From Octopus sinensis (taxonomy: Eukaryota), in assembly GCF_006345805.1 (NCBI RefSeq), contig NC_042999.1, positions 117,924,001 to 117,988,000 on the forward strand: 64,000 nt of DNA, given 5' to 3'. How positions within the stretch are numbered: the stretch's first letter is position 1; every line of letters starts with the position of its first letter. The position numbers and the translations under genes are program-made. The notes under the pieces were generated by a model. The model was not told the DNA's origin. It saw nothing but the letters and a program-made list of their open reading frames with translations, and made no database searches. Below, in pieces: positions 27,435 through 50,239 of this stretch.

Positions 27435-28935
27435 CACACCCAGGACCACGCTAATAGCTAAGGAGTGGAATTTAGGTCTTCTCGGTTTTCTATGAATCGA
27501 ATTGATAAAGCTTCTCCCATCTGGTTTGCACACTATCGAAAAACCATTGTTGTTTTCATTATTCTGTGTAACGTCCTTTACTTCAGACTATTCAGTTTTG
27601 GGGTGAACTACGCTAATAGCTTTTGAATGAAAATAGCCCATCTATACATTTTTATCCATATTAAGCATACATTGAGTATATATTTAACTGAAAGCCATAA
27701 TAATATAATAACATTTATTGGCATAATGAATTACTTAGCCCCATGAGCACCCCCCCCCCCAAAAAAAAAAAACAATCAGATTGTGGGACCTCCAAAACTG
27801 TGACATCTAGGGATTTAAGTAATATTGGCCGCAAGTTACGTGGGAAACCTGGATAAACAAGCAAAGCCATTTCACCGCTCCCGGACCTCCTCGTGTACCG
27901 AAAACCACCAGAAATCGCATCGTCAGGACAATGGCTTCCATGCGAGAACCTTTGAAACTGCCTCCTCATAGGAGTTTGAGGCTTCAATGGGCCCAAAATT
28001 ACATGACGTTAGACTTGAGTTGTGTTCTGATCACTAAAGAAACCAGGGTGATCCTTGACGAAACTAACGGTTGGGCAAATGGTTGGGTCTATTTTAGAGA
28101 TGAGCGTCACCAACTTTTACGACGTCAACAACAGGGTGGAGGAGTCATCTTGTGGGCTGGTATCATTGGGGACAGACTTGTTGGCCCATTCAGGGTGCCT
28201 GAAGAGGTTAAAGTGATTGCAGCTGCCTTCTGCAATCTCCTGAAGGAGGTCTTGGATCTCTGGCTAGATGACATACTGCTGTCACTTCTAAGGAATCTCG
28301 AATTCATGCATGACAACACTCCCTCTCATTCTACTAGGACCACCCAAATATTCCTAGGGTTTTACGGTATACAATGTGAAAGGTTGATGGTGTAGTCGCA
28401 AGCATCTCCAGATCTCAAACCTATCGAAAATATTTGGTCCATCATTAAACAAGATGTTTATGACGATGGACGCCAATTTACGTCGAAAAATGTCATATGG
28501 GCGACCATGAAAGCTGCAGCAGAGGCAGTACAACCTGCTACTATTAAGAAATTGACTAATAGGGTTTTTGAAGTTATCTATCAAAATGGCGCTCATGTAG
28601 CTAAATAATTCATTATGACAATAAATGTTATAATATTATTATGGTTTTCTCTTAAATATACACTCAATGTGTGCTTAATATGTATCACTACCCTTCATTT
28701 TATAAAAAACAAAAAAAGGTATTGATGGTCTATTTTCATTCAAAAGCTATTAGCGTGGTTCACTCAAAAACTGAATAATCTGAAATAAAGGACGTTACTC
28801 AGAATAATGAAAACATAACAAGGGTGTTGCCAAGGGTGTTGCAAGCCAGCTGGGAAACGTTTTATCAAAATCGATTCGCAGAAAACCGAGAAATCCTAAT
28901 TTCACTCCTTAGCTATTAGCGTGGTTCTGGGTGTA
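27435..28935 (+). mobile_element. Tc1-like DD37E (TRT-like) transposon with long IR/DR-type TIRs; transposase pseudogene at ~27800-28605
   Basis: TA-flanked TIRs over 200 bp, each with two copies of ACYACGCTAATAGCT. Peptide RRQQQGGGVILWAGIIG...FMHDNTPSH...*SQASPDLKPIENIW has 37 residues between D and E. Confidence 0.85.
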
Positions 28936-31910: not shown

Positions 31911-33418
31911 CTGCAGAGAGATTAAACTAACGGTTGAAAAACGGCGTCTTGCTAACCGCATACTGCTGTCAAAGATACTACGTATAATCCCCAGATAATA
32001 TTAAGTTTAGAGCTACATTACTTTAAAACAGCTTTAACATCCTACCAACCGTATTTTACAGCTTTATCTGGGAAATTGGAGACTCATTAAAAGTTTTCAA
32101 AGAATTTTTTTCCTTTAGATCACTCAATCTATTCTAATGAGTAAAAGAATATTTTTATATATTTTCTTAGTTATAAATGTCACATTAAAATCTATGCTTC
32201 TTATCAAACGACTTGACCGCCGTGTATTTCAACTTACTAGAAATAGTTGCCAAATCACCACCAAATAACTACCAACTACAATAACCACGCACTACACTGC
32301 GGTCTTTTAAAAGGTACACACTGTATAATGTTCAATGAATTTTGTTTAAAAATCAAATGGAGTCGATTAGAAAACCATTGATAATCAGCCTTTTTGATCT
32401 GGACTGTATAGGGCTAAACAGCAACAATAACAAAACCGATGAGAAAAGTCAAGGAAGCCAAAAGTTGAGCATCTGCGTGTTCCACACAATCTGCAAGGAT
32501 GACTAGCCACTTGTCCCTTAAATTTTACACTATCGTCTTAGAAAATGTTACGACATATTAAACAATGTAGTACTATATTACATTATGTTTGAATATAATC
32601 AATAATAGTTTGGTTTGATTAGGTCTAGTATCAAGGTAGCTAACTACTACCACTAGAACGTCTACAACTATGACAACTATGAATGCAACAACTAAAACAC
32701 AATTTTCTAACAGTAGTACAGGACCACAAATTTTAGGTGATCAAGCATTCATTCTAGGAGTCTTTTATCGACCCTCGTAGGAATGAAGAGTCTTGTGCTA
32801 CAATGACAATAATTCTAATCTAGTGCATTTTAAGCTTTGGGGTTGAAATAAACTAATCCAGTAATATGTAATGATAATCTTTATATATATAAAACTGAGA
32901 ATATGTATCTGTCTGTCTGTCTGTCTGTGTGTTTCCCTAAAACTTGAGAACTACACAACCAATTTCATTCAAATTTTACACATGCCTTACTTAGGGTCCA
33001 TGTAGTTTCGTGGGCAAAAAGAAATGTTCAACTTTTTGCCTAGGGCGAGCCCATAGCAATATCATATCTTCTCCACTATTTCAGTAGTACATGTTAAAAG
33101 TAAACAAAAAACATTTCTCTATTTTATGTCAGATACTTTCACTTTAACATAAAAAATAATAATAACAATTGAAGTATATGTAGTAAGTTTAATTAAAATC
33201 AAAAAAGTATAATATAATCGTAACATAAAAAAAGTAAAAATAGCAATTGGTATAAAATTGCATCCGTGACTTGAACTGAAAAGTGGTTTCTCATGAATGG
33301 GAATAATTAAAAATAAAATTAGCCTGCAGAAATGGAATAGTCCAGATGGATAATAAAAGATTAAATAAAGAAAAACTATTGTCTATAAAGTATACAATGT
33401 AGAGAAAAAAGAGATTTT

Positions 33419-35193
33419 CACCCACGGCGGAAATACCCAAGTGTGTTGTTATTGTGACTAGACGGAATTTTGTTGTGTAATTGATAATTATCGCGCGAGG
33501 CGTTGCCTCTCGTGTGGAAACCTTCCGAAGAGGTGAATTGACCCTCTAGTCATGGCGACTTACGCGGGGGTCACGGGAAAAAGAAGTAATGATTGCTCGA
33601 TAGTCGTGAAGGATGTTTTCTTTGAGAAGAATAAACTCAAAGAATACGAAAAGCTATTCAAAAGGGAGGGTGATAGCGTGAAGCTAATCCCCCCCGCGAA
33701 AGCAAAAGAGGACAAAGAAAACAAAACTGTAACGTATAGAACCCAGGACAAAAGTACAAAGAAACTGGCAAGAGTGGAGATAGCAGAGATCGAAAAATGT
33801 CTGGGAGACATAATGGATAAATCGACCTACGTGAGTAGAGGAAAAAAATTTGGTACGGTGGAGGTGAGATGTGCAACGGAAGAAATTGCAGCCTCACTGG
33901 CTACCACTGTTCTAAGAGGCGGAAACATTCATAATGTGGCCCTCATACAAGGGAAGAAGAGGGGTCCGGGTTAAAATCCCGATATACCCCCAGAAATAAA
34001 AACAGAGTGGCTGGCACAGCTATTCTGGGAGCAGCAGAAGAGGAAGTGGAGGTGGAATCCTTTAAGGAGTCCAATGCAGTAAACTGGAGAGGATATGGGT
34101 AGAACTGTGTTTGATGGCCAAAAAAGAGGACATTGAAAGGTTCCCCTACAGAATAGAAATCGAAGACGAGAAAACCCTCAGTGTAATTGTAGAGGGTAGA
34201 AAGCCAAACTGCTACTTGTGCGGGACAAGGGGGGCACATTAAAAAAGAGTGCCCGCTATACGAATTCATAGCGGAGTACGAGCAGGAACTTGAAGAAAGG
34301 AAGAATAAGGTAAATGAAAAAGAAAACATAGAAAAGGAGACAAAACAACAAGAGAAGGAAATAATAAGTCAACGAAAGAAAAAGATATAAAAGAAAAAGA
34401 AGAAATGGAACCAAAACAGAGTCAGGAAAAGAAAAAGGAAAAGAAACAACAGGAAAAAAACAAGAGAGAGATCAGAATCAACGAAAGAAAAGACGGACGC
34501 ACACAAAAAGAAAAAGAAAAGGAACATAAAACACGAGAGAAAGAGAGAACAGACAAAGACCAAAAGACAAGAGAAGGAGAGAAGAAAGAAGAAAAGAAAG
34601 CAAAAGAGAGAAAGAGAGAAACAAAGAGAGGAGAACAAGGAAGAAGTAAGCCCGAAAAGAAAAACGAGGGAAAACGTAGGACGAAAACAAGATTACTACA
34701 AGTTAATAACCTTCCATTTCACCCCTGAAATGAAGGAATTGACATGTAGTACGGAGGGACATGTGTGGGTCAACAGGATGACTGATCAGTGCAGGAGATG
34801 CTCTGATCCCCGAAGAAAGAGTCGCTGAGTTCCTCAGAGCAGCTGGAGAGAGTGTAATTTTTTACACGGGTGTTCGAATGAAGAGCGGCTGCCTGAGGGC
34901 TCAGTGATTGACTTTAGAGACTTGAAAGGTATTATGGAATACGTATAAAATTGTGAGAAGAGAGAGAAGAAAGAAGAAAAAAAAAAAAAAGAAAATATTG
35001 TAAAATATATGTGACGAAAATGTAACCTCTCGATTTCGGGGATCGAGTGGGCATTTACATCTCATTGTAAATATTCTTTCATATGTCATTTTTACTTTTA
35101 ATTTTTTCCTTTTCTTGTCATTTCGCTTTCTTAATTTAAGTTCCTCGATTGTATTGTCCCCTCTATGTTCGCCCCTTGTGGGTAATAATAAAA
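33419..35193 (+). mobile_element. ORF1-only non-autonomous retroelement, family A, unit 1
   Basis: Junction motif, structured 5' UTR, one ORF1-like gene and the shared 47-nt tail. Confidence 0.85.
33552..34948 (+). CDS. Family A ORF1/Gag-like protein: CCHC knuckle, E/K-rich linker, C-terminal domain (frameshifted)
   Basis: MATYAGV...RGKKFGTVEVRC...VEGRKPNCYLCGTRGHIKKECP...DLKGIMEYV*, assembled across indels and copies. Homologous to ORF1 at 44724. Confidence 0.75.
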
Positions 35194-36980
35194 CACCACG
35201 GCGGAAATTTACCCAAGTGTGTTGTTATCTGTGACTAGACAGGAATTTTGTTGTGTAAATTGATAATTATCGCGCGAGGCGTTTGCCTCTACGTGTGGAA
35301 ACCTTCCGAAGAAGGTGAATTGACCCTCTAGTCATGGCGACTTACGCGGGGGTCACGGGAAAGAGAAGTAATGATTGCTCGATAGTCGTAAAGGATGTTT
35401 TCTTTGAGATAAGAAAACTCAAAGAATACGAAAAGCTATTCAAAAGGGAGGGTGATAGCGTGAAGCTAATCCCCCCCGCGAAAGCAAAAGAGGACAAAGA
35501 AAACAAAACTGTAACGTATAGAACCCAGTGACAAAAGTACAAAGAAACTGGCAAGAGTGGAGATAGCAGAGATCGAAAAATGTCTGGGGGAGACATAATG
35601 GATAAATCGACCTACGTGAGTAGAGGAAAAAAATTTGGTACGGTGGAGGTGAGATGTGCAACGGAAGAAAAATTGCAGCCTCACTGGCTACCACTGTTCT
35701 AAGAGCGGAAACATTCATAATGTGGCCCTCATACAAGGGAAGAAGAGGGGTCCGGGTTAAAATCCCGAATATATACCCCCAGAAATAAAAACAGAGTGCT
35801 GCAACAGCTATTCTGGGAGCACAGAAGAGGAAGTGGAGGTGGAATCTTTAAGGAGTCCAATGCAGTAAACTGGAGAGGATATGGGGTAGAACTTGTTTGA
35901 TGGCCAAAAAGAGGACATTGAAAGGTTCCCCTACAGAATAGAAATCGAAGACGAGAAAACCCTCAGTGTAATTGTAGAGGGTAGAAAGCCAAACTGCTAC
36001 TTGTGCGGGACAAGGGGGCACATTAAAAAAGAGTGCCCGCTATACGAATCATAGCGGAGTACGAGCAGGAACATGAAGAAAGGAAGAATAAGGTAAATGA
36101 AAAAGAAAACATAGAAAAGGAGACAAAACAACAAGAGAAAGGAAATAATAAGTCAACGAAAGAAAAAGATATAAAAGAAAAGAAAGAAATGAACCAAAAC
36201 AGAGTCAGGAAAAGAAAAAGGAAAAAGAAACAACAGGAAAAAACAGAGAGAGATCAGAATCAACGAAAGAAAAGACGGCACACAAAAAGAAAAAGAAAAG
36301 GAACATAAAACACGAGAGAAAGAGAGAACAGACAAAGAACCAAAAAGACAAGAGAAGGAAGAAGAAAGAAAAGAAAGCAAAAAAGAGAGAAAGAGAAACA
36401 AAGAGAGGAAACAAGGAAGAATAAGCCGAAAAGAAAAACGGAAAAACGAGGGAAAACGTAGGACGAAAACAAGATTACTACAAGTTATAACCTTCCATTT
36501 CACCCCTGAATGAAGGAATTGACATGTAGTAGTAAGGAGGGACATGTGTGGGTCAACAGGATGACTGATCAGTGGCAGGAGACTGCTCTGATCCCCGAAG
36601 AAAGAGTCTCGCTGAGTTCCTCAGAGCAGCTGGAGAGAGTGTAATTTTTTACACGGGTGTTCGAATGAAAGAGCGGCTGCTGAGGGCTCAGTGATTGACT
36701 TTAGAGACTTGAAAGGTATTATGGAATACGTATAAAATGTGAGAAGAAGAGAAGAAAGAACAAAAAAAAAAAAAAAAGAAAATATTGTAAAATATATGTG
36801 ACGAAAATGTAACCTCTCGATTTCGGGGATCGAGTGGGCATTTACATCTCATTGTAAATATTCTTTCATATGTCATTTTTACTTTTAATTTTTTCCTTTT
36901 CTTGTCATTTCGCTTTCTTAATTTAAGTTCCTCGATTGTATTGTCCCCTCTATGTTCGCCCCTTGTGGGTAATAATAAAA
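35194..36980 (+). mobile_element. Family A unit 2 (ORF 35334-36735, frameshifted)
   Basis: Near-identical to unit 1. Starts CACCACGGCGGAAA. Confidence 0.85.
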
Positions 36981-38800
36981 CACCACGGCGGAAATTTACC
37001 CAAGTGTGTTGTTATCTGTGACTAGACAGGAATTTTGTTGTGTAAATTGATAATTATCGCGCGAGGCGTTTGCCTCTACGTTGGAAACCTTCCGAAGAAG
37101 GTGAATTGACCCTCTAGTCATGGCGACTTACGCGGGGGTCACGGGAAAAGAAGAAGGAATGATTGCTCGATAGTCGAAAGGATGTTTTCTTGAGAAGAAA
37201 ATAAACTCAAAGATACGAAAAGCTATTCAAAAGGGAGGGTGATAGCGTGAAGCTAATCCCCCCCGCGAAAGCAAAAGAGGACAAAGAAAACAAAACTGTA
37301 ACGTATAGAACCCAGGACAAAAGTACAAAGAAACTGGCAAGAGTGGAGAGATAGCAGAGATCGAAAAATGTCTGGAGAACATAATGGATAAATCGACCTA
37401 CGTGAGTAGAGGAAAAAAATTTGGTACGGTGGTACGGTGGAGGTGAGATGTGCAACGGAAGAAATTGCAGCCTCACTGGCTACCACTGTTCTAAGAGCGG
37501 AAACATTCATAATGTGGCCCTCATACAAGGGAAGAAGAGGGGTCCGGGTTAAAATCCCGAATATACCCCCAGAAATAAAAACAGAGTGGCTGGCAACAGC
37601 TATTCTGGAGCAGCAGCAGAGAAGAGGAGTGGAGGTGGAATCCTTTAAGGAGTCCAATGCAGTAAACTGGAGAGGATATGGGGAGAGTGAACTGTGTTGA
37701 TGGCCACAAAAGAGGACATTGAAAGGTTCCCCTACAGAATAAAATCGAAGACGAGAAAACCCTCAGTGTAATTGTAGAGTAGGTAGAAAGCCAAACTGCT
37801 ACTTGTGCGGGACAGGGGGCACATTAAAAAAGAGTGCCCGCTATACGAATTCATAGCGGAGTACGAGCAGGAACTTGAAGAAAGGAAGAATAAGGTAAAT
37901 GAAAAAGAAAACATAGAAAAGGAGACAAAACAACAAGAGAAAGGAAATAATAAGTCAACGAAAGAAAAAGATATAAAAGAAAAGAAAGAAATGGAACCAA
38001 AACAGAGTCAGGAAAAGAAAAAGGAAAAAGAAACAACAGGAAAAAAACAAGAGAGAGATCAGAATAAAGAAAAAGAAAAGACGGCACACAAAAAGAAAAA
38101 GAAAAGGAACATAAAACACGAGAGAAAGAGAGAACAGACAAAGAAAAAACCCAAAAAAAAAAAAAAAAAGACAGAGAAGGAGAAGGAGAAGAAGAAAAGA
38201 AGCAAAAAAGAGAGAAAGAGAGGAACAAAGAGAGGAGAACAGGAAGAAGTAAGCCCGAAAAGAAAAACGAGGGAAAACGTAGGACGAAAACAAGATTACT
38301 ACAAGTTAATAACCTTCCATTTCACCCCTGAAATGAAGGAATTGACATGTAGTACGGAGGGACATGTGTGGGTCAACAGGATGACTGATCAGTGGCAGGA
38401 GACTGCTCGATCCCCGAAGAAAGAGTCGCTGAGTTCCTCAGAGCAGCTGGAGAGAGTGTAATTTTTTACACGGGTGTTCGAATGAAAGGCGGCTCTGCCT
38501 GAGGCTCAGTGATTGACTTTAGAGACTTGAAAGGTATTATGGAATACGTATAAAATTGTGAGAAGAGAGAGAAGAAGAAAGAAAAAAAAAAAAAAAAAAG
38601 AAAATATTGTAAAATATATGTACGAAAATGTAACCTCTCGATTTCGGGGATCGAGTGGGCATTTACATCTCATTGTAAATATTCTCATATGTCATTTTTT
38701 ACTTTTAATTTTTTCCTTTTCTTGTCATTTCGCTTTCTTATTTTAAGTTCCTCGATTGTATTGTCCCCTCTATGTTCGCCCCTTGTGGGTAGTAATAAAA
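36981..38800 (+). mobile_element. Family A unit 3 (ORF 37120-38553, frameshifted)
   Basis: Near-identical to unit 1. Tail variant GGGTAGTAATAAAA. Confidence 0.85.
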
Positions 38801-40607
38801 TCCCACGGCGGCGGAAATTTACCCAAGTGTGTTGTTATCTGTGACTACTAGACAGGAATTTGGTTGTGTAAATTGATAATTATCGCGCGAGGCGTTTGCC
38901 TCTACGTGTGGAAACCTTCCGAAGAAGGTGAATGACCCTCTAGTCATGGCGACTTACGCGGGGTCACGGGGACGGGAAAGAGAAGTAATGATTGCTCGAT
39001 AGTGGAAAGGATGTTTTCTTTGAGAAGAATAAACTCAAAGAATACGAAAAGCTATTCAAAAGGGAGGGTGATAGCGTGAAGCTAATCCCCCCCGCGAAAG
39101 CAAAAGAGGACAAGAAAAACAAAACTGTAACGTATAGAACCAGGACAAAAGTACAAAGAAACTGGCAAGAGTGGAGATAGCAGAGATCGAAAAATGTCTG
39201 GGAGACATAATGGATAAATCGACCTACGTAGAGTAGAGGAAAAAAATTTGGTACGGTGGAGGTGAGATGTGCAACGGAAGAAATTGCAGCCTCACTGGCT
39301 ACCACTGTTCTAAGGCGGAGGAAACATTCATAATGTGGCCCTCATACAAGGGAAGAAGAGGGGTCCGGGTTAAAATCCCGAAATACCCCCAGAAATAAAA
39401 ACAGAGTGGCTGGCAACAGCTATTCTGGGAGCAGCAGAAGAGGAAGTGGAGGTGGAATCCTTAAGGAGTCCAATGCAGTAAACGGGAGAGGATATGGGGT
39501 AGAACTGTGTTTGATGGCCACAAAAGAGGACATTGAAAGGTTCCCCTACAGAATAGAAATCGAAGACGAGAAAACCCTCAGTGTAATGTAGAGGGTAGAA
39601 AGCCAAACTGCTACTTGTGCGGGACAAGGGGGCACATTAAAAAAGAGTGCCCGCTATACGAATTCATAGCGGAGTACGAGCAGGAACTTGAAGAAAGGAA
39701 GAATAAGGTAATGAAAAAGAAAACATAGAAAAAATAGAAAGGACAAACAACAAGAGAAAGGAAATAATAAGTCAACGAAAAAAAAGATATAAAAGAAAAG
39801 AAAGAATGGAACCAAAACAGAGTCAGGAAAAGAAAAAGGAAAAAGAAACAACAGGAAAAAAACAAGAGAGAGATCAGAATCAAACGAAAAGAAAAGACGG
39901 CGGCACACAAAAAGAAAAAGAAAAGGAACAAAAAAACACGAGAGAAAGAGAGAACAGAAAAGAACCAAAAAGACAAGAGAAGGAAGAAGAAAGAAAAGAA
40001 AGCAAAAAGAGAGAAAGAGAGAAACAAAGAGAGGAGAACAAGGAAGAAGTAAGCCCGAAAAGAAAAACGAGGGAAAACGTAGGACGAAAACAAGATTACT
40101 ACAAGCTAATAACCTTCCATTTCACCCCTGAATGAAGGAATTGACATGTAGTACGGGGAGGGACATGTGTGGGTCAACAGGATGACTGATCAGTGGCAGG
40201 AGACTGCTCTGATCCCCGAAGAAAGAGTCGCTGAGTTCCTCAGAGCAGCGGGGAGAGAGTGTAATTTTTTACACGGGTGTTCGAATGAAAGAGCGGCTGC
40301 CTGAGGGCTCAGTGATTGACTTTAGAGACTTGAAAGGTATTATGGAATACGTATAAAATGTGAGAAGAGAGAGAAGAGAGAAAAAGAAAAAAAAAAAAAA
40401 AAAGAAAACATTGTAAAATATATGTGACGAAAATGTAACCTCTCGATTTCGGGGATCGAGTGGGCATTTACATCTCATTGTAAATATTCTTTCATATGTC
40501 ATTTTTTACTTTTAATTTTTTCCTTTTCTTGTCATTTCGCTTTCTTATTTTAAGTTCCTCGATTGTATTGTCCCCTCTATGTTCGCCCCTTGTGGGTAGT
40601 AATAAAA
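38801..40607 (+). mobile_element. Family A unit 4 (ORF 38946-40356, frameshifted)
   Basis: Near-identical to unit 1. Tail variant as in unit 3. Confidence 0.85.
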
Positions 40608-42551
40608 TCCCACGGCGGAAATTTACCCAAGTGTGTTGTGAGTTATTTTTTGCATGTGAAACTTTGGAAAAAAACTGTTAAAAAAAATTGTCAAAAATTG
40701 AATCGCGCGAGGCGTTTGCCGCTGCGTGTTTGAACCTTTTATAGAAGGTGTGTCGACCCTCAAGTCATGGAGACTTACGCGGGGGTCGCCACAACAAAAA
40801 GTGACGAGTCACTTAGAATAAAAGAAGTGTTCTTTAGAAAAGAACAATTGAAGGAATACGAGAAGTTCGTCAAAAGGGAGGGTGACAGCGTGAAGCTGGT
40901 CCCGCCTGTGGAAACAATAGAAGAAAAAAATAACAAGACGATAACGTATAGAACGCAAGATAGAAACACGAGAAAACTGGTGAGAGTGACGATTGAAGAA
41001 ATAGAGAAATGTCTGGGGGACATCATGAAAAAAGCGACTTTTGTAGACAGAGGAAAGAAATATGGTACGGTGGAGGTGAGATGCGCAACAAGGAAAGAAG
41101 TGGCGGCCTCATTGGCTTCCACTGTCCTGAAAGCGGAAAATTTCACCATGTGGCCGACGTATAAAGGAAGACGAGGGGTACGGGTAAGAGTCCCAAAGGT
41201 GCCCCCAAATATTAAAACAGAAATGCTGGTAACAGCCATTATTGGGGCAGCAAAAGAGGAAGTAGAAATAGGGTCAATTAAGGAGACGAACGTTGTAAAT
41301 TGGAAGGGATTCGGAGTCGAGTTGTGGCTGATGGCCACAATTGAAGACATCGAAAGATTTCCCTTCCAAATAGAAATAGAAAACGAAAAAACAATTAGTG
41401 TAATAGTGGAAGGCAGAAAACCGAATTGCTACCTGTGCGGCTCAAGAGGGCACATAAAAAAGGAATGTCCGCTGTATGAATTCACAGCGGAGCAAAAAGA
41501 GACACAAAGTGGAGAGAAGGAAAACGAACACGAGGAAAGAACAGCGAAAACAAGGAAAAGGAAATAACGGAGAAACAACAAGAGAAGGGAAGTAACAGCG
41601 CACTGAAGGAAAATGAAAACAAAGGGAAGAAGATAGTAGAAAAGGAGCAAAATTCACAGGGTGCAGAAGTAGAGGAGAAGGAGCCAAGGCAGAAGCAAGA
41701 GAAAGAAAAGGAAAGTACATTAAAGGAAAGAGAAAAAGCAGGAAAAGAACAAGAGAAGGAACAGAACCAAGAGAAAGGAAAAGATGGTATGCAAAAAGGA
41801 AAAGAAACAACAGGAAAGGAACTTAAGGCACAGGGTAGAGAGACGGCAGACAAAGAGCCAAAAAGACAAGAGAAGGAAAAAGAAAGAAGAGAAAGCAAAA
41901 AGAGAGAAAGAGAGAAACCGAGGGAGGAGAAAAAAGAGGAAGTAAGTCCTAAGAGAAAAACTAGAGAAAACGCAGGTACGAATAGAAAATTCAAATACTA
42001 TGGAACGTTGATCCATCACAAACACTGTGAGGAGATGGAAAATTTAATAAGCGAAACAAACGGATATACGTGGGTCAGGATGGGCACCGAATGGAAAGAA
42101 ACAGGTGCACTCGTCCACGAGAACGACGCCGAGGCGTTCATCGAGGCAGCTGGCGAGAACGTGTTAAAACATATGAAATGCCGACTTCCAAGGTGGCCTC
42201 GAACGATGGAAATTTACTCAGATTTGGTAGACATAATGGAGTATATATAAAAGAAAAGGTATTATGAAAACTTTAATTTGGAAATGATAAAAGAACTTTA
42301 AATTCGGAAAAAAAAAAAAAAAAAAAAAAGAATGTTGAACTTTGTAAAACTTTTTGAAATGTATGTTGAAAATGTATAAAATGTTTTATTTGAAAATATT
42401 GTTGACGAATAAAAATAAATGACGAAATGTAACCGCTCGATTACGGGGATCGAGTGGGCATTGCACCACATTGTACAAACTTCATAATTCATTATTCATT
42501 TTCCCGATTGTATTGTCCCATCTATGTAGCCCCTAGTGGGTAATAATAAAA
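40608..42551 (+). mobile_element. ORF1-only non-autonomous retroelement, family B, unit 5
   Basis: Same architecture as family A with diverged sequence. Tail at 42506-42551. Confidence 0.85.
40767..42250 (+). CDS. Family B ORF1/Gag-like protein (one frameshift near 41532)
   Basis: METYAGV...CYLCGSRGHIKKECP...DLVDIMEYI*. Confidence 0.8.
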
Positions 42552-44488
42552 CACCACGGCGGAAATTTACCCAAGTGTGTTGTGAGTTATTTTTTGCATG
42601 TGAAACTCTGGAAAAAAACTGTTAAAAAAATTGTCAAAAATTGAATCGCGCGAGGCGTTTGCCGCTGCGTGTTTGAACCTTTTATAGAAGGTGTGTCGAC
42701 CCTCAAGTCATGGAGACTTACGCGGGGGTCGCCACAACAAAAAGTGACGAGTCACTTAGAATAAAAGAAGTGTTCTTTAGAAAAGAACAATTGAAGGAAT
42801 ACGAGAAGTTCGTCAAAAGGGAGGGTGACAGCGTGAAGCTGGTCCCGCCTGTGGAAACAATAGAAGAAAAAAATAACAAGACGATAACGTATAGAACGCA
42901 AGATAGAAACACGAGAAAACTGGTGAGAGTGACGATTGAAGAAATAGAGAAATGTCTGGGGGACATCATGAAAAAAGCGACTTTTGTAGACAGAGGAAAG
43001 AAATATGGTACGGTGGAGGTGAGATGCGCAACAAAGGAAGTGGCGGCCTCATTGGCTTCCACTGTCCTGAAAGCGGAAAATTTCACCATGTGGCCGACGT
43101 ATAAAGGAAGACGAGGGGTACGGGTAAGAGTCCCAAAGGTGCCCCCAAATATTAAAACAGAAATGCTGGTAACAGCCATTATTGGGGCAGCAAAAGAGGA
43201 AGTAGAAATAGGGTCAATTAAGGAGACGAACGTTGTAAATTGGAAGGGATTCGGAGTCGAGTTGTGGCTGATGGCCACAATTGAAGACATCGAAAGATTT
43301 CCCTTCCAAATAGAAATAGAAAACGAAAAAACAATTAGTGTAATAGTGGAAGGCAGAAAACCGAATTGCTACCTGTGCGGCTCAAGAGGGCACATAAAAA
43401 AGGAATGTCCGCTGTATGAATTCACAGCGGAGCAAAAAGAGACACAAAGTGGAGAGAAGGAAAACGAACACGAAGGAAAGAACAGCGAAAACAAGGAAAA
43501 GGAAATAACGGAGAAACAACAAGAGAAGGGAAGTAACAGCGCACTGAAGGAAAATGAAAACAAAGGGAGAAGATAGTAGAAAAGGAGCAAAATTCACAGG
43601 GTGCAGAAGTAGAGGAGAAGGAGCCAAGGCAGAAGCAAGAGAAAGAAAAGGAAAGTACATTAAAGGAAAGAGAAAAAGCAGGAAAAGAACAAGAGAAGGA
43701 ACAGAACCAAGAGAAAGGAAAAGATGGTATGCAAAAAGGAAAAGAAACAACAGGAAAGGAACTTAAGGCACAGGGTAGAGAGACGGCAGACAAAGAGCCA
43801 AAAAGACAAGAGAAGGAAAAAGAAAGAAGAGAAAGCAAAAAGAGAGAAAGAGAGAAACCGAGGGAGGAGAAAAAAGAGGAAGTAAGTCCTAAGAGAAAAA
43901 CTAGAGAAAACGCAGGTACGAATAGAAAATTCAAATACTATGGAACGTTGATCCATCACAAGCACTGTGAGGAGATGGAAAATTTAATAAGCGAAACAAA
44001 CGGATATACGTGGGTCAGGATGGGCACCGAATGGAAAGAAACAGGTGCACTCGTCCACGAGAACGACGCCGAGGCGTTCATCGAGGCAGCTGGCGAGAAC
44101 GTGTTAAAACATATGAAATGCCGACTTCCAAGGTGGCCTCGAACGATGGAAATTTACTCAGATTTGGTAGACATAATGGAGTATATATAAAAGAAAAGGT
44201 ATTGTGAAAACTTTAATTTGGAAATGATAAAAGAACTTTAAATTCGGAAAAAAAAAAAAAAAAAAGAAATGTTGAACTTTGTAAAACTTTTTGAAATGTA
44301 TGTTGAAAATGTATAAAATGTTTTATTTGAAAATATTGTTGACGAATAAAAATAAATGACGAAATGTAACCGCTCGACTACGGGGATCGAGTGGGCATTG
44401 CACCACATTGTACAAACTTCATAATTCATTATTCATTTTCCCGATTGTATTGTCCCATCTATGTAGCCCCTAGTGGGTAATAATAAAA
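42552..44488 (+). mobile_element. Family B unit 6
   Basis: Near-identical to unit 5 with a few substitutions. Confidence 0.85.
42710..44190 (+). CDS. Family B ORF1/Gag-like protein (one frameshift near 43568; consensus of units 5 and 6 ~493 aa)
   Basis: The 288-aa and 153-aa ORF-track pieces join when the base present in unit 5 is restored. Confidence 0.8.
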
Positions 44489-44723
44489 CACCACGGCGGA
44501 AATCAATTTTTTGCGTTATTAGTAAGTTGATATATAATTTTGCTCTCGTACTATTATCTCTGTTATTATATACTGTTGATCTACCTGTTTTTGTCTATTG
44601 TTGTCTAACGGACGAAGCCAGCCTTCGCGCGAAGACTTCGCGTTGGTGTTCCCCCCCTCAGTGGGGGAAAACTACAAGTAATTTGGATTTACCAAAGGCT
44701 TGTTATAAAGCCATTTGTTCAAG

Positions 44724-46094
44724 ATGGAGTCCCCCATCACTTATTCGCCCGTGACGAGCGAGGATGAATACCCGGCGTTGTCGCCAAGTAAAAAAGAGGC
44801 GTTGTCGCCAAGAAAAAAAGAGGCGCTGTCGCCGAAGAAAAAAGAGGCGGCGTCGCCCAAGAAAATGGAAAAACCAGTACCAGCATCAACTCCAGCAAAA
44901 AAATTCGCTGAAGTGGCTGGGAAAAAGATCAAAAAAATAAATATAGACAATTTTAAAAAATTTGCAGACTGCGTAAAAAAAGAAGGCACAGAAGTGACTG
45001 TGGCCACAAACATACAAATACATGACGATATAGAGAAAAAAAGAATAATATATAAAACTTACGACACAACGAAAAAAATGATCCAAAAAATCGAAGAAAA
45101 AAAAATAGAGTCTTGTCTAAAACCGTTTATGGACAAAATATAAACAGAGGAAAAAGATACGGCACAGTGGAGGTGCGTTTTACTACGGAGGATATAGCGA
45201 AGAAACTATCGATGGAGCCGATCAAAGCGGAAAACATTGTCTTACTACCATTGTATAAAGGAAAAAGGACGTCAAAAATTTCAATGAACAACATACCGCC
45301 AGAGGCTGATGCTGAATGTCTGGTGGCAGCAGTGATGGTAGGTCTGGAGGAAAAAATAAACATCCTCCAGGCCACAGTGGAGGAAGAGGATTTTTGGAAA
45401 GGCCAAAAAATAGTGATAGCCATTCAGGCGGAGGTGCAAACACTGGAAGAAATTCCAGAAACGGTAAAGATTAGTGAAGACGAGAAAATAACAGTGTTCG
45501 TGGAGGGCAGGAAACCGAGGTGCTTCGGCTGCGGCAAGAAGGGGCATGTAAGGGCGGAATGCCAACCCCAACCCAAACCGCAGGAAGCACCTAAGCCAAA
45601 AGAAAAAGAAGACAATGTGTCACCAGAAGCAGCGTCAGATGGCCCAGAAGGGAAGACTGAAGGTGTGGAGGTGACGGTGACAGCAGAACCAGCGGCGGGG
45701 AAAAAAAAAGAGCGAGGAAAAGATAAATGAGGAGGGGTGGAAAAAAATTATCGGAAAAAAAAAGAAAAACGGAAACCACCCCTCCCAGAGTAATTTTAAA
45801 AAAGAAAAAAGAGTCAATGAACTCATATATGGCCGTAAAGGCAGCAAATAGCAGACTCGGAAACGTGTTGGCAGCCATGGCCAAAGTGGAGAAAGTAGAG
45901 AAAAAAAACGACTTTGTAATTTACAGAATAGGCCGGAAGGATTACGGCGGATAAAGTCAGAATTCTTCCATGACGTAGGCCCACTTAGATTGGATGTGAC
46001 ATCTCCACATATATTCGAGGGCCTACGTCAGACTCCCCCACGAGGCCCAGAAAAAGAGTTAGAAGAACAAGAGAAAACCGAACCACTGATATAA
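44724..46094 (+). CDS. ORF1p nucleic-acid-binding protein (frameshifted)
   Basis: SPxK repeats, RGKRYGTVEVRF, VEGRKPRCFGCGKKGHVRAEC (CX2CX4HX4C). The 3' end is inferred across frameshifts. Confidence 0.8.
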
Positions 46095-46102
46095 GGTAAG
46101 TA

Positions 46103-49100
46103 ATGGATTACATTTATGTTGGTTGTTTGAATGTGCGCGGCCTGGGAGCAGACTGGAAGCAAGGTCGCTTCCTGCATGATATCAGGTCGCGTAATTTAGA
46201 TGTTATTGTTGCTACAGAAACCCGGTTAGAGGGGCCAAGAGGTCTACTCCCGCTGTTTGACGGCTACGAGAGTTTTTTATCTCCTGGCAGTCCTACAGGC
46301 GGGAGTGGGGTGTTGGTCCTATTAAAAAGAAACCGGGTTTCTGAGAAAAAGTTAATTTTTGCAGATCCAGAAGGTAGGCTGGTCGTCATGGATTTGACGT
46401 TCAGTAACGGTAAAGTTATCAGACTGGTTGCAATTTACGCACCCAACCATACAGGGCAAAGTGATTATTTTCGTGAACTAGAAAACTTTCTTGGTACTTC
46501 GCATTCATTAGTGGTGCTAGGAGACTTTAACACAATTTGCAAAGCGGATGTAGATTATGTTGGCTCGTGTCCAGATAGAAAAGGCAACAGTGGCTTCATG
46601 GAACTGCTAAGCCGCTTTGAGCTAGCAGATCCTTATAGGCTGGAATTTCCGAACGCTCCATTGTGGACATGGTCAAACAGCGACGGATCTTCCAGGTCAT
46701 ATTTAGATAGAATACTAATTAGAAAAGTAGACAGTAAAATAGCTAAGTGTCCACAGTTTTACCCGATCAGCTACAGTGATCATAAAATGGTCACTTGTAA
46801 GCTTGACATAGATAAGGTTAAAAATAGAGGATCCGGTTACTGGAAACTTAATACGTCCCTTTTGGCGATTAAGGAGTACAAAGACCGGATTAGGAATATA
46901 ATTCAGAGGGCACTATCTGGTACCATCATTATAACAAATGGTGGTACGCCCTCAAACGAGCCATCAAGTTTGAGTCTATTAGATATAGCATAGGAGTAGT
47001 GGCTAGAGAGGCTAGAAGGGAAACTACTCTAGTTAAGGAATTAGAGGAAGCCATGAAAACTGGCTCTGCGGCTCAGGTGGCGTCCAAGAGACTGGTGTTA
47101 AACCAGCACCTCGAGGCCAAACACATGGGCTGCATTGTCAGGGCTAGAATCCGTCATATGGGATGTGAAGGAATCAACGCCGTGAGATGGGCCCGAGTGG
47201 TGGAAGCTCAGCATGGTAACGATGCCACGATTCGATCTTTGACGAACCAACAAGGTGAGTTGATAAACGAACCCGAGGAGATGTGTGAGGCCTTTCAGGA
47301 GCACTTCGCTCAGCTTTTCGGTGAGTGCGGCGGACTGGATAGGAGGAGGGCCTTTACGGACCTACTCGACGGTCTGCCGCGCTTATCGGGGCGAGATGCG
47401 GAGGGCTGTGAAGGGCCAATCACGCCTGGGGAGGTGTTTGAGGCAATGGCGGACTGCGGCGCGGGCAAGGCGCCGGGTTTGGATGGTCTGCCCTATGAGT
47501 TATATAAGAGTATGCCAGACTTGTTCGGGCACCTACTGGCGGAGGTCTATGCGAACTGGCAGCAGAACGGGCTTATACCCAGATCTGTGCGCCGGGGAGT
47601 AGTGACTCTCGTCAGAAAGGACCCGAGCAAGGGGGAGTGCATTGATAATTTCAGGCCCATCACTCTGCTAAACACAGAGTTGAAGATTTTGGCCAAAGTG
47701 TTATCGAAAAGATTGGCGCGTGTCGCGGATGGTCTGATCGGAGAGGCACAGACATGTGCCGTTCCGGGCAGATCCATTCAGGATAATCTCCATCTAATGC
47801 GGTACACTATAGAGGGGTTTAATAGTGATTCTGGCAAGGGTGGGGCACTGGTCCATTTAGACCAATCTAAAGCTTTTGATAGGGTCGACCATCGTTACCT
47901 GGTGTCTGCCCTGGCACAGTTCGGGCTGAGCCTTGGCTTCCTCAGGTGGATTATCCAAATTTATGATAACATCGACTCGGTAGTTCGGGTGAACGGCTTC
48001 TTGTCGAAGCCGTTCAAAATCAAACGCTCGGTTCGTCAAGGGTGTCCGCTCTCCCCGCTTTTGTACGTGATGGCTCTTGAGCCATTACTGCGAAAACTGA
48101 GCGGCATCCCGAGACAGCCAGGTAATGGAAAATCAGTGTCAGCGTACGCGGATGACATCACCATCATCGTAACCGAAATGGACCACCTATGTAAAGTAGG
48201 CAAGGCCATAGAGGTTTACGAGACGGTGACAGGAGCAAAAGTTAATCGCGAAAAGTCAGTCGGCTTGCAACTCGGCACCTGGAGAGGCAAGTCGATGCCT
48301 CCTGACAGCGTCGTGGGACGTTGGACGGAGGGTCCGATTAAACTGCTAGGGGTCTGGTTCGGTCCAGACCTCCAAATAGAGAAGAATTGGGGCGAGGTAA
48401 CGAGCAAGGTGGCTGCAGTAGCCAAGACCTGGTCTTGGCGGTGGCTATCCCTGAAAGGGAGGGCGGAGGTGGCCATGTGTTTATCGCATCGGTTATCACC
48501 TACCGCCTTTCCGTCGTTCCTTGCCCTGATTCGTGGTTGATCAAGTTGGAAAGACAGCTCTTCTACTTCTTGTGGAAGGGCGGGAAACCACTTGTGAAAC
48601 GCTCTACTTGCTGTCAACAACCGTTAAAGGGTGGGCTAGGGATGCCTTGGCTGATGATGCGCAGACATGCGCTGAGGTTAAGACATCTGTGGCTCTACCT
48701 GGATGGTGAACGGGTGTGGTCTTCGCTAGCAAAACTGATGTTTCCCAAGTTCACTAGTTTCGGTGGATGGGAAACCTGGCTGAATCGTAGATCGAAACTT
48801 GGTACTTGGTACACGGAGTGTCGCAAGGCTCTCCTGCTATTCCGTCGCTCGGGCAACGCCTGCGGTGGGGGTTCCACCACATTCCTCTATAGAGGGTTGG
48901 TAGAGGCGGAATGTGAAGATACCTTGGGGGAAACCCTAGGTCTCGACGATAATCAGCTGGCCAGTCTGTTCCGACGTACGTTCGAGCCGAGGACACTGGA
49001 CAACTTCCAGAAGTCCCTGGCATGGCAATGCTACAGAGGAGCTCTACCTGTTCGGGATAAACTCGCAAGGCACGGTGGCCAAGACAGTCCGATATGTCCA

Positions 49101-49496
49101 AGATGCGGGCGGGATAGGGAAACCGTCCCGCACGCGATTGTTCATTGTCCGGACGTGTCTGAGGTGTGGGTTTATGCCGAACACCTGTTGTCAGGTACAC
49201 GAAGAGTACAGCTGTCGACTGAGTCGATTACAAAAATTGACCCACCGGATTTCCTCGTGAATGAAGGTAAGTTTCGTTTTCTCGTTGTAGTAGCAATTGC
49301 GAAAGAGGTGATATGGAAGACGAGAATGAAAGGTTTACAGTCAGGCAAGTTCATCTCCGGCCCTGGTTTGATGAACTATTTCATCTTTCACCTGAAAAGG
49401 AAGATAGGGCTGGAATGAATATGCCTGACTAGGAGAGTGTATGAAGAACGATGGAAGGATGTAGCACGAAAGTTGCGAGTGAAAGATACAACATAA
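46103..49496 (+). CDS. ORF2p: APE endonuclease, reverse transcriptase, C-terminal zinc finger (two frameshifts; in-frame TGA at 49416)
   Basis: LNVRGL, ETRL, GDFN, YLDRI, SDH (APE). PGLDG, FRPITLLN, DQSKAFD, RQGCPLSP, YADD (RT). CPRC...ETVPHAIVHC (Zn finger). Confidence 0.93.
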
Positions 49497-50239
49497 ATGT
49501 AATACCAAGTGCAACCAAAAGTATCAGTGGGGAGGCGGGGCTCGTGGGGTCCGAGCTAAACCCGCACCCACTCCACCCGTAACGTCTTCCGGTCTGTCCC
49601 ATCATTCGATTTCTGTCCATTTATTGTAATTCATGAAAATTTTTAAAATTCGATTTAGTGTAAAAACCCATTCGTTTGTCTGACCCAGATTGTATTGTCC
49701 CATCTATGTTCGCCCCTTGTGGGTAATAATAAAATCACATGGAGGAAAGCACCTTCGAAAAGTGTCTTGGTGTGACCATGAAAGATATCTAATCAGAGGT
49801 GGTAAATTCGCCACAATAGAAGCAAGGTTCGAGTCAACGGAGCGTACAAGGGAGTACTCGACTCGAACTTGCAAAGTGGAAATATTTTATATCTGGGACG
49901 TAGGACGTCCCGGAAAAAGTTAAATATGCCCCCCTCCCGAAGTAGATGTAGGCTGGATTGTAGCCACATTTCTATACAAGAGGGAGGACAAGATACAATT
50001 GATTGTAATTACAAGAGACGGGCTAACAATTCCAGTCCGTTATATATTTTGAGTATTGTTATCACTAGCGATATCAAGATATAACTTTGTATTTTGTATT
50101 TTATGTGTAGATGTATATATATAGATGTACATGTAATATGTACACATATATATACACACATTTATACATGCACTAGCACTATGACCCGGCAACGACGGGT
50201 CTTTAATGCTAGTAATGTAATATTTGTAGCACTATTTAA

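Follow-up and report, generated by a model that had tools for sequence, protein, structure and literature searches.

A shared 47-nt tail closes each of seven retroelement units in a 64,000-nt stretch of the Octopus sinensis genome (assembly GCF_006345805.1, contig NC_042999.1, positions 117,924,001 to 117,988,000). The whole stretch is referred to as the window, and all positions below are counted in it. The units stand head-to-tail at 33422-49736 and comprise four of family A, two of family B and one full-length long interspersed nuclear element (LINE), here called L. The tail is shared between unlike families, its hairpin covaries, its ends are fixed, and the elements use a target site and leave target duplications. 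Most probably the tail serves, as RNA, as the cis-acting signal of a LINE of the L1 superfamily (Tx1-like) that is stringent, lacks poly(A) and prefers particular targets; we infer its recognition by the protein of open reading frame 2 (ORF2p) from sequence comparison. The features of the tail are as follows.

49688 to 49734, forward strand: tail of L, in the extent common to A and B (alignment of array units)
35147 to 35193, forward strand: tail of the first A unit, identical to the L tail at 46 of 47 positions (tail search)
49712 to 49724, forward strand: hairpin GCCC-CUUGU-GGGU with a 4-bp stem and a 5-nt loop, the covarying core (RNAalifold, pair counts)
49725 to 49736, forward strand: A-rich terminus with AATAAA, then a terminal TC, without poly(A) (tail copies in the genome)

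The L tail differs by 1 nt each from the A tails at 35147-35193 and 36934-36980, by 2 nt each from those at 38754-38800 and 40561-40607, and by one gap and two substitutions from the B tails at 42506-42551 and 44443-44488. The chance expectation for such matches is 0 in 100 shuffles. An earlier note on this DNA had described the tail as nearly invariant across three families; the invariance holds, and the window contains seven tails instead of three. Identity between L and A is 98% over the last 47 nt, 48% over the previous 47 and 42% over the previous 100; for L and B the values are 92, 41 and 33%. The shuffle baseline is approximately 43%, so the abrupt upstream edge that the note had reported is real. 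Comparison between families thus shows much stronger conservation in the tail (92-98%) than elsewhere in the 3' untranslated region, where identity is at shuffle level. Conservation within the L family (98-100% in the tail vs 85-97% upstream, 8 copies) was not used, since a search by tail had supplied the copies and biases the comparison. Similarity continues for about 14 nt past the tail, a consequence of the likeness between the inter-unit spacer and the insertion target. An Rfam scan of 30000-54000 gave no match to the tail, only sub-threshold simple-repeat microRNA matches, and a tRNA scan of the window found none.

A 32-nt tail pattern has 315 exact matches in the genome, and the context was classified for the first 100 among the matches listed. 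The sequence beyond the tail continues with A4 or more in none of the 100, in agreement with the note, which saw no long poly(A). The true element end lies 2 nt past the 47-nt tail and reads TC in 57 and CA in 34 copies. Another unit follows in 45 copies, one repeat (Helitron-like, see below) in 25 and other DNA in 30; 27 of these last 30 continue with A. Tails without a following unit are found at a single Helitron nucleotide in 25 of 55 cases and at a second Helitron site in 4 more, the latter being counted under other DNA together with one unit head (by eye).

The constrained core is approximately 23 nt long and consists of the hairpin followed by ARTAA..AAA. A core pattern ending in AAAGAAA gave 99,983 exact genome matches (control, 0) and a relaxed pattern with another loop base gave 2,169; the core-match loci examined are mostly a SINE-like (short interspersed nuclear element) sequence of about 229 bp. 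In genome searches pair 2-12 of the stem is C-G in 99,983 matches, G-C in 251, G-G in 403 and C-C in 566, and for the G-C double change 2.3 would be expected under independence from the one-sided counts. None of the 30 G-C loci examined belongs to the abundant SINE; they represent other families (ORF2 matches in 7, ORF1 matches in 2), including LINEs of 30-72% ORF2 identity and ORF1-only elements. One-sided changes at this pair were in SINE copies in 25 of 25 loci examined (10/10 and 15/15). In a further search the stem was A-U/A-U in 8 of 30 loci, four of them with ORF2 matches; the other 22 were 19 SINE double mutants, 2 SINE fragments and 1 non-SINE with an unpaired position. Among 28 distinct family tails the 4-bp stem pairs in 99.1% of cells and slid registers pair in at most 51% (an alternative 3-bp register is covered only in part by these). 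Pair 2-12 in these tails is C-G in 12, G-C in 11, A-U in 4 and other in 1, and pair 1-13 is G-U in 14, G-C in 10 and A-U in 4. RNAalifold on a 25-row set chose the same 4-bp stem, with compensatory changes between families. Of the two folds put forward in the note, GCCC/GGGT is thus supported by pair counts and RNAalifold. The long stem TATTGTCCC/GGGTAATA was rejected: it is 84.8% paired, one pair is broken in 10/25 and another in 12/25, and its covariation is at shuffle level.

Several observations weigh against the cis-signal reading. Single-sequence folding of four tails was not significant (z -0.23 to -1.30) and the stem is weak. The two inner C-G pairs never vary and hence carry no information on pairing. 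An ORF2 tree with 8 labelled rows (2 of 9 loci were left out for short cover) needs just three stem-state changes, so that independent events are few. The family tails were found by patterns that fix most of the stem, which inflates the shuffle figures of 0/500. Locus L062 has a shifted stem with a 6-nt loop and C-C in the aligned register, and locus L245 has U-U at pair 2. The SINE ends in AAAGAAATA, and the sequences after it are mostly unlike those after L. Finally, nearly all families end with AATAAA or AGTAAA, both of which are working poly(A) signals. This last point favors a rival explanation, in which the hairpin and AATAAA of the tail together direct RNA 3'-end processing and so end array transcripts, and ORF2p is not sequence-selective; the covariation, too, supports a structure and not the identity of its binder. 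However, poly(A) was present in 0 of the 100 listed copies and all end a few bases past the hexamer, whereas the normal cleavage site lies farther from it, and the hairpin is also kept by the 229-bp SINE. We consider a processing signal unlikely.

The seven units are listed below.

33422 to 35195, forward strand: unit A1, ORF1-only, beginning with the array-specific spacer CCACGGCGGAAAT (alignment)
35196 to 36982, forward strand: unit A2, ORF1-only, tail at 36934-36980 (alignment)
36983 to 38802, forward strand: unit A3, ORF1-only, tail at 38754-38800 (alignment)
38803 to 40609, forward strand: unit A4, ORF1-only, tail at 40561-40607 (alignment)
40610 to 42553, forward strand: unit B1, ORF1-only, its ORF1 about 75% identical to that of A, tail at 42506-42551 (alignment)
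42554 to 44490, forward strand: unit B2, ORF1-only with zf-CCHC, tail at 44443-44488 (Pfam, alignment)
44491 to 49736, forward strand: full-length LINE L, ORF1 from 44724, ORF2 at 46103-49496 with APE, RT and zf-RVT (Pfam, homology)

Unit sizes are approximately 1.8 kb (A), 1.94 kb (B) and 5.25 kb (L). Pfam identified Exo_endo_phos, RVT_1 and zf-RVT in ORF2, and the best solved relative is human L1 ORF2p (E 2.5e-64; R2 at 3e-25). The endonuclease, the reverse transcriptase, the C-terminal zinc motif and the proximity to L1 ORF2p assign L, as judged by homology, to the L1 superfamily (L1/Tx1). The reading frames of L are interrupted in the window copy; ORF2 is intact at 1131 amino acids (aa) in locus L067, and stop-free frames of at least 1128 aa were counted by hand in 19 of 147 scored matches. 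The last ORF2 piece ends at a stop at 49415-49418 that neither L067 nor the contigs of any of four public runs contain; it is either a copy-specific change or a sequencing error. Tx1-like is our best, provisional reading of the lineage; among 54 homologs there was no curated Tx1 reference, only one fungal protein with an automatic 'TX1' name. The ORF1 of Tx1-clade elements carries a CCHC knuckle. Here zf-CCHC scores above the cut-off in B ORF1, and in L and E (an ORF1-only family) the motif is present below the cut-off, which is consistent with a Tx1-type ORF1. An ESM Atlas search gave generic CCHC/RNA-binding clusters only. The preference for a target sequence, described below, also fits Tx1.

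The earlier note had envisaged other passengers ending in this tail, and the SINE and additional ORF1-only families were found. Identity between L and the SINE is 81% over the last 47 nt and 42% upstream. The SINE is short, non-coding and has target duplications: matches of 9-18 nt on both sides were found in 16 of 42 copies vs 0.16 in shuffled sequence (at least three are simple repeats). A tRNA-derived SINE would carry A and B boxes in a tRNA-like head. Here the head fits a loose A-box pattern in 27 of 32 copies, and none of the 32 fits a strict B-box pattern (by eye, with one mismatch); Rfam gave no tRNA match in the head of the one copy scanned. The tail shared with this partner SINE and the 3' stem-loop with compensatory changes are what a stringent LINE would be expected to show. 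Because the SINE end and the downstream sequence differ from those of L, its driver is probably a sister family. The SINE ending is the lineage-wide form, and SINE-internal sequence often follows SINE copies. One copy of a sister LINE (L171, about 70% ORF2 identity) was found at a site in SINE-internal sequence, and an L171-type LINE is a candidate driver from this single case. Two points within the SINE recur as insertion sites of other SINE copies, which produces tandem runs of 184 bp, and a tRNA match (Rfam, 37.6 bits) at 1203-1265 of locus L084 lies just 5' of a SINE copy. In L088, L098 and L102 the ORF1-only family E always stops at one point of the SINE head. In distant LINE families that have the hairpin (L113, L115, L119, L132, L134, L135, L138, L244-L267), the element passes directly into (ATT)n or (ATC)n, which may be microsatellite targets or repeat tails.

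At least five ORF1-only groups (A, B, D, E and G) were found, with ORF1 frames in units of 1.7-1.9 kb. An ORF2 tblastn search of A2 and B2 gave no match. ORF1-only non-autonomous LINEs are known as HAL1, HeT-A and Ag-Sponge (PMC5786205, PMC5753468, in the parts consulted); like these, A and B encode only the ORF1 protein and would depend on an autonomous LINE. By the presence of ORF1, the absence of ORF2 and a LINE-type 3' end, the five groups are best classed as HAL1-type. Unlike HAL1, A and B are not deletions of the neighboring L, and they have only the last 47 nt in common with it. A strict HAL1 origin by internal deletion of the co-resident L was rejected: B ORF1 is 36% identical to L ORF1, and alignment found no DNA similarity of A or B to L outside the tail and spacer. 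A1 to A4 differ by many small indels, which may be sequencing errors. Since A and B are not deletions of L and yet carry its derived ending, the 47 nt probably mark how much sequence was taken over in a recent tail capture, and about 23 nt is the constrained core. The note's proposal of a cis signal in a stringent L1-clade element is supported by the L1-superfamily driver, the passengers, the compensatory changes and the conservation of the tail between families, and its 47-nt signal length is not. A second rival explanation attributes the tail identity to recent recombination or gene conversion between array neighbors, without function. A and B carry the derived ending of L (AATAATAAAA) almost exactly and adjoin L in arrays, and a recent capture accounts for the 47-nt length. 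For the core, however, this explanation is largely refuted by dispersed SINEs and LINEs of 30-72% ORF2 identity that keep it with paired changes, and by solo A copies outside arrays (L077-L079); as a whole it is very improbable.

The array sits inside a Helitron-like repeat, which serves as the target of these elements.

32878 to 33420, forward strand: 5' part of a non-autonomous Helitron-like repeat, beginning A|TC (comparison of loci)
49737 to 50212, forward strand: 3' part of the repeat, with a hairpin at 50183-50201 and CTAG at 50209-50212, then T (comparison of loci)
49737 to 49749, forward strand: target site ACATGGAGGAAAG; the empty site reads gatttgaac|acatgg (empty loci, contigs)
49774 to 50013, forward strand: decayed ORF1 fragment of the LINE lineage of L inside the Helitron, limits approximate (profile search)

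Helitrons have a 5' TC, a 3' hairpin followed by CTAG, and insert between A and T. The repeat, present in at least 466 copies, begins with TC at 32878 and ends CTAG|T in 25 of the 26 loci with a hairpin found (30 examined), and so matches the ends of a Helitron. In 18 of 30 loci 32878-33420 runs directly into 49737-50212 and the site is empty; the other 12 are filled (7 with an L or A tail and 5 with a family D tail), all at one nucleotide. The empty junction at 49736 was also found in contigs of three of four public runs; these data are contigs only (run type guessed) and cannot show ends or strand. Four copies of an L subtype (L189, L226, L228, L229) mark a second insertion site at about 50030, and in L198, L214, L219 and L238 a further recurring sequence, which may be a different target repeat or a unit head, comes after an L subtype. 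The ORF1 remnant after the site was found by a profile (E 6e-9 in the window copy, 6e-12 at best) and missed by tblastn with single ORF1s; the Helitron target may have arisen from captured element sequence. Descent of the filled Helitrons from one filled copy was examined with a tree of 26 copies, which is star-like and does not cluster the filled ones. A single origin of six D-filled copies was not rejected (approximately unbiased test, p-AU 0.08). At seven loci (L061, L062, L065, L067, L069, L073 and L075) family D has an identical 5' junction that lacks about 12 bp of the target and shows no duplication; integration with a fixed geometry or the copying of a Helitron already filled by D would account for it.

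Arrays of mixed composition were found repeatedly (D-B-L three times, A-L, D-L and A-B-L). The target specificity, missed in the earlier note, explains the array. Spacers of 13-16 nt are constant within an array, where they are common to different families, and differ between arrays and from the terminal target. The spacer is also found at the left edge of the window array, and L076 has a local target variant on both sides. We interpret the spacer as a target duplication that spread as later elements kept inserting where the first had created a junction, and some array growth may be due to unequal exchange or Helitron copying of filled repeats. A third explanation, that the tail acts as DNA, either as a promoter for the next unit (as in HeT-A arrays, where the tail promoter drives the next unit, and another unit does follow 45 of the 100 listed tails) or as part of an endonuclease site, is hardly credible, given that empty targets without the tail are still used, that covariation points to a single-strand stem and that most tail carriers are dispersed SINEs.

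For the cis signal we propose the following mechanism, whose ORF2p binding, internal initiation, template switching and insertion order we infer. ORF2p would recognize the hairpin (4 bp, 5-nt loop) and the A-rich end, and reverse transcription would start about 12 nt past the stem at the nicked target, in the manner demonstrated for L2-clade elements (PMC4176376). ORF1-only elements and the SINE, which carry the tail, would be copied in trans. A and B would be older ORF1-only lineages that took the tail version of L, probably by template switching, which would set the 47-nt edge. Repeated insertion at one Helitron site, each event duplicating 13-16 nt after the nick, would then produce mixed arrays.

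Stringent L1-clade tails are known in maize, sorghum and Chlamydomonas (PMC3472496, PMC3747384; these and the papers cited below are used for the parts consulted), with pairs such as LINE1-1_ZM with ZmSINE2/3 and L1-1_CR with SINEX-3_CR (PMC3472496). The octopus case resembles these in its L1-clade driver, a 3' end of about 45-50 nt common to SINEs and a compensatory hairpin (PMC3472496), and differs in being animal, poly(A)-less and target-specific, with ORF1-only passengers. Tx1-clade LINEs include Xenopus Tx1 in Tx1D, crocodilian Tx1-Mar with SINEU and Tx1-9_AMi in Harbinger (PMC4494074); they prefer other transposons or microsatellites as targets and mobilize a SINE in trans, as the octopus lineage would. 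Unlike the SINE here, SINEU has a poly(A) tail; what links it with Tx1-Mar in the parts consulted is the target, the age and the common heads, and a shared 3' stem-loop is not among these links. In contrast to L the Tx1 targets described in the consulted parts of PMC4494074 include no Helitron. The small SINE-shared 3' stem-loop read by ORF2p, our working model, resembles that of zebrafish ZfL2-1/ZfL2-2 and eel UnaL2, L2-clade elements with stringent tails proven by assay (PMC4176376); UnaL2 has TGTAA repeats at its end (PMC3747384), unlike L, A and B, which have no terminal repeat. The literature searched, on these themes and on cephalopod repeats, mentioned neither a Helitron as target nor an animal L1/Tx1 whose stem-loop is shared with a SINE; the search did not extend to Repbase, Dfam, supplements and subscription papers, where the pairing may already be recorded. 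Two surveys of octopus repeats mention L1-Tx1 as well as SINEs but, in the parts consulted, no partner (PMC13282606, PMC8967140); those of PMC4758252, PMC4824008 and PMC3531059 contain no further case of such pairing.

How L1 shifted from reading a specific tail to reading poly(A) is an open question. The octopus lineage would add an animal case to the stringent L1-clade examples, and within it may lie the driver of a SINE of very high copy number. More tentatively, with slightly less than even confidence, we suggest that it is an animal L1/Tx1 system with a strict hairpin and no poly(A) or repeat tail, in which a 23-nt signal is shared by a dominant SINE expansion (about 100,000 exact cores) and by a guild of tail-swapping ORF1-only elements that follow new drivers. 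If this is true, the lineage would be an animal in which the stringent state, from which the relaxed mammalian L1 is proposed to descend, can be studied as it occurs in nature, a case that the papers searched do not describe. With intact ORF2 copies, three hairpin states, a defined target and several passengers, stem swaps between sister families can test the stringency. Elsewhere in the window, a 154-aa ORF at 27931-28395 presumably represents a Tc1/mariner DDE transposase fragment, which it resembles by eye.
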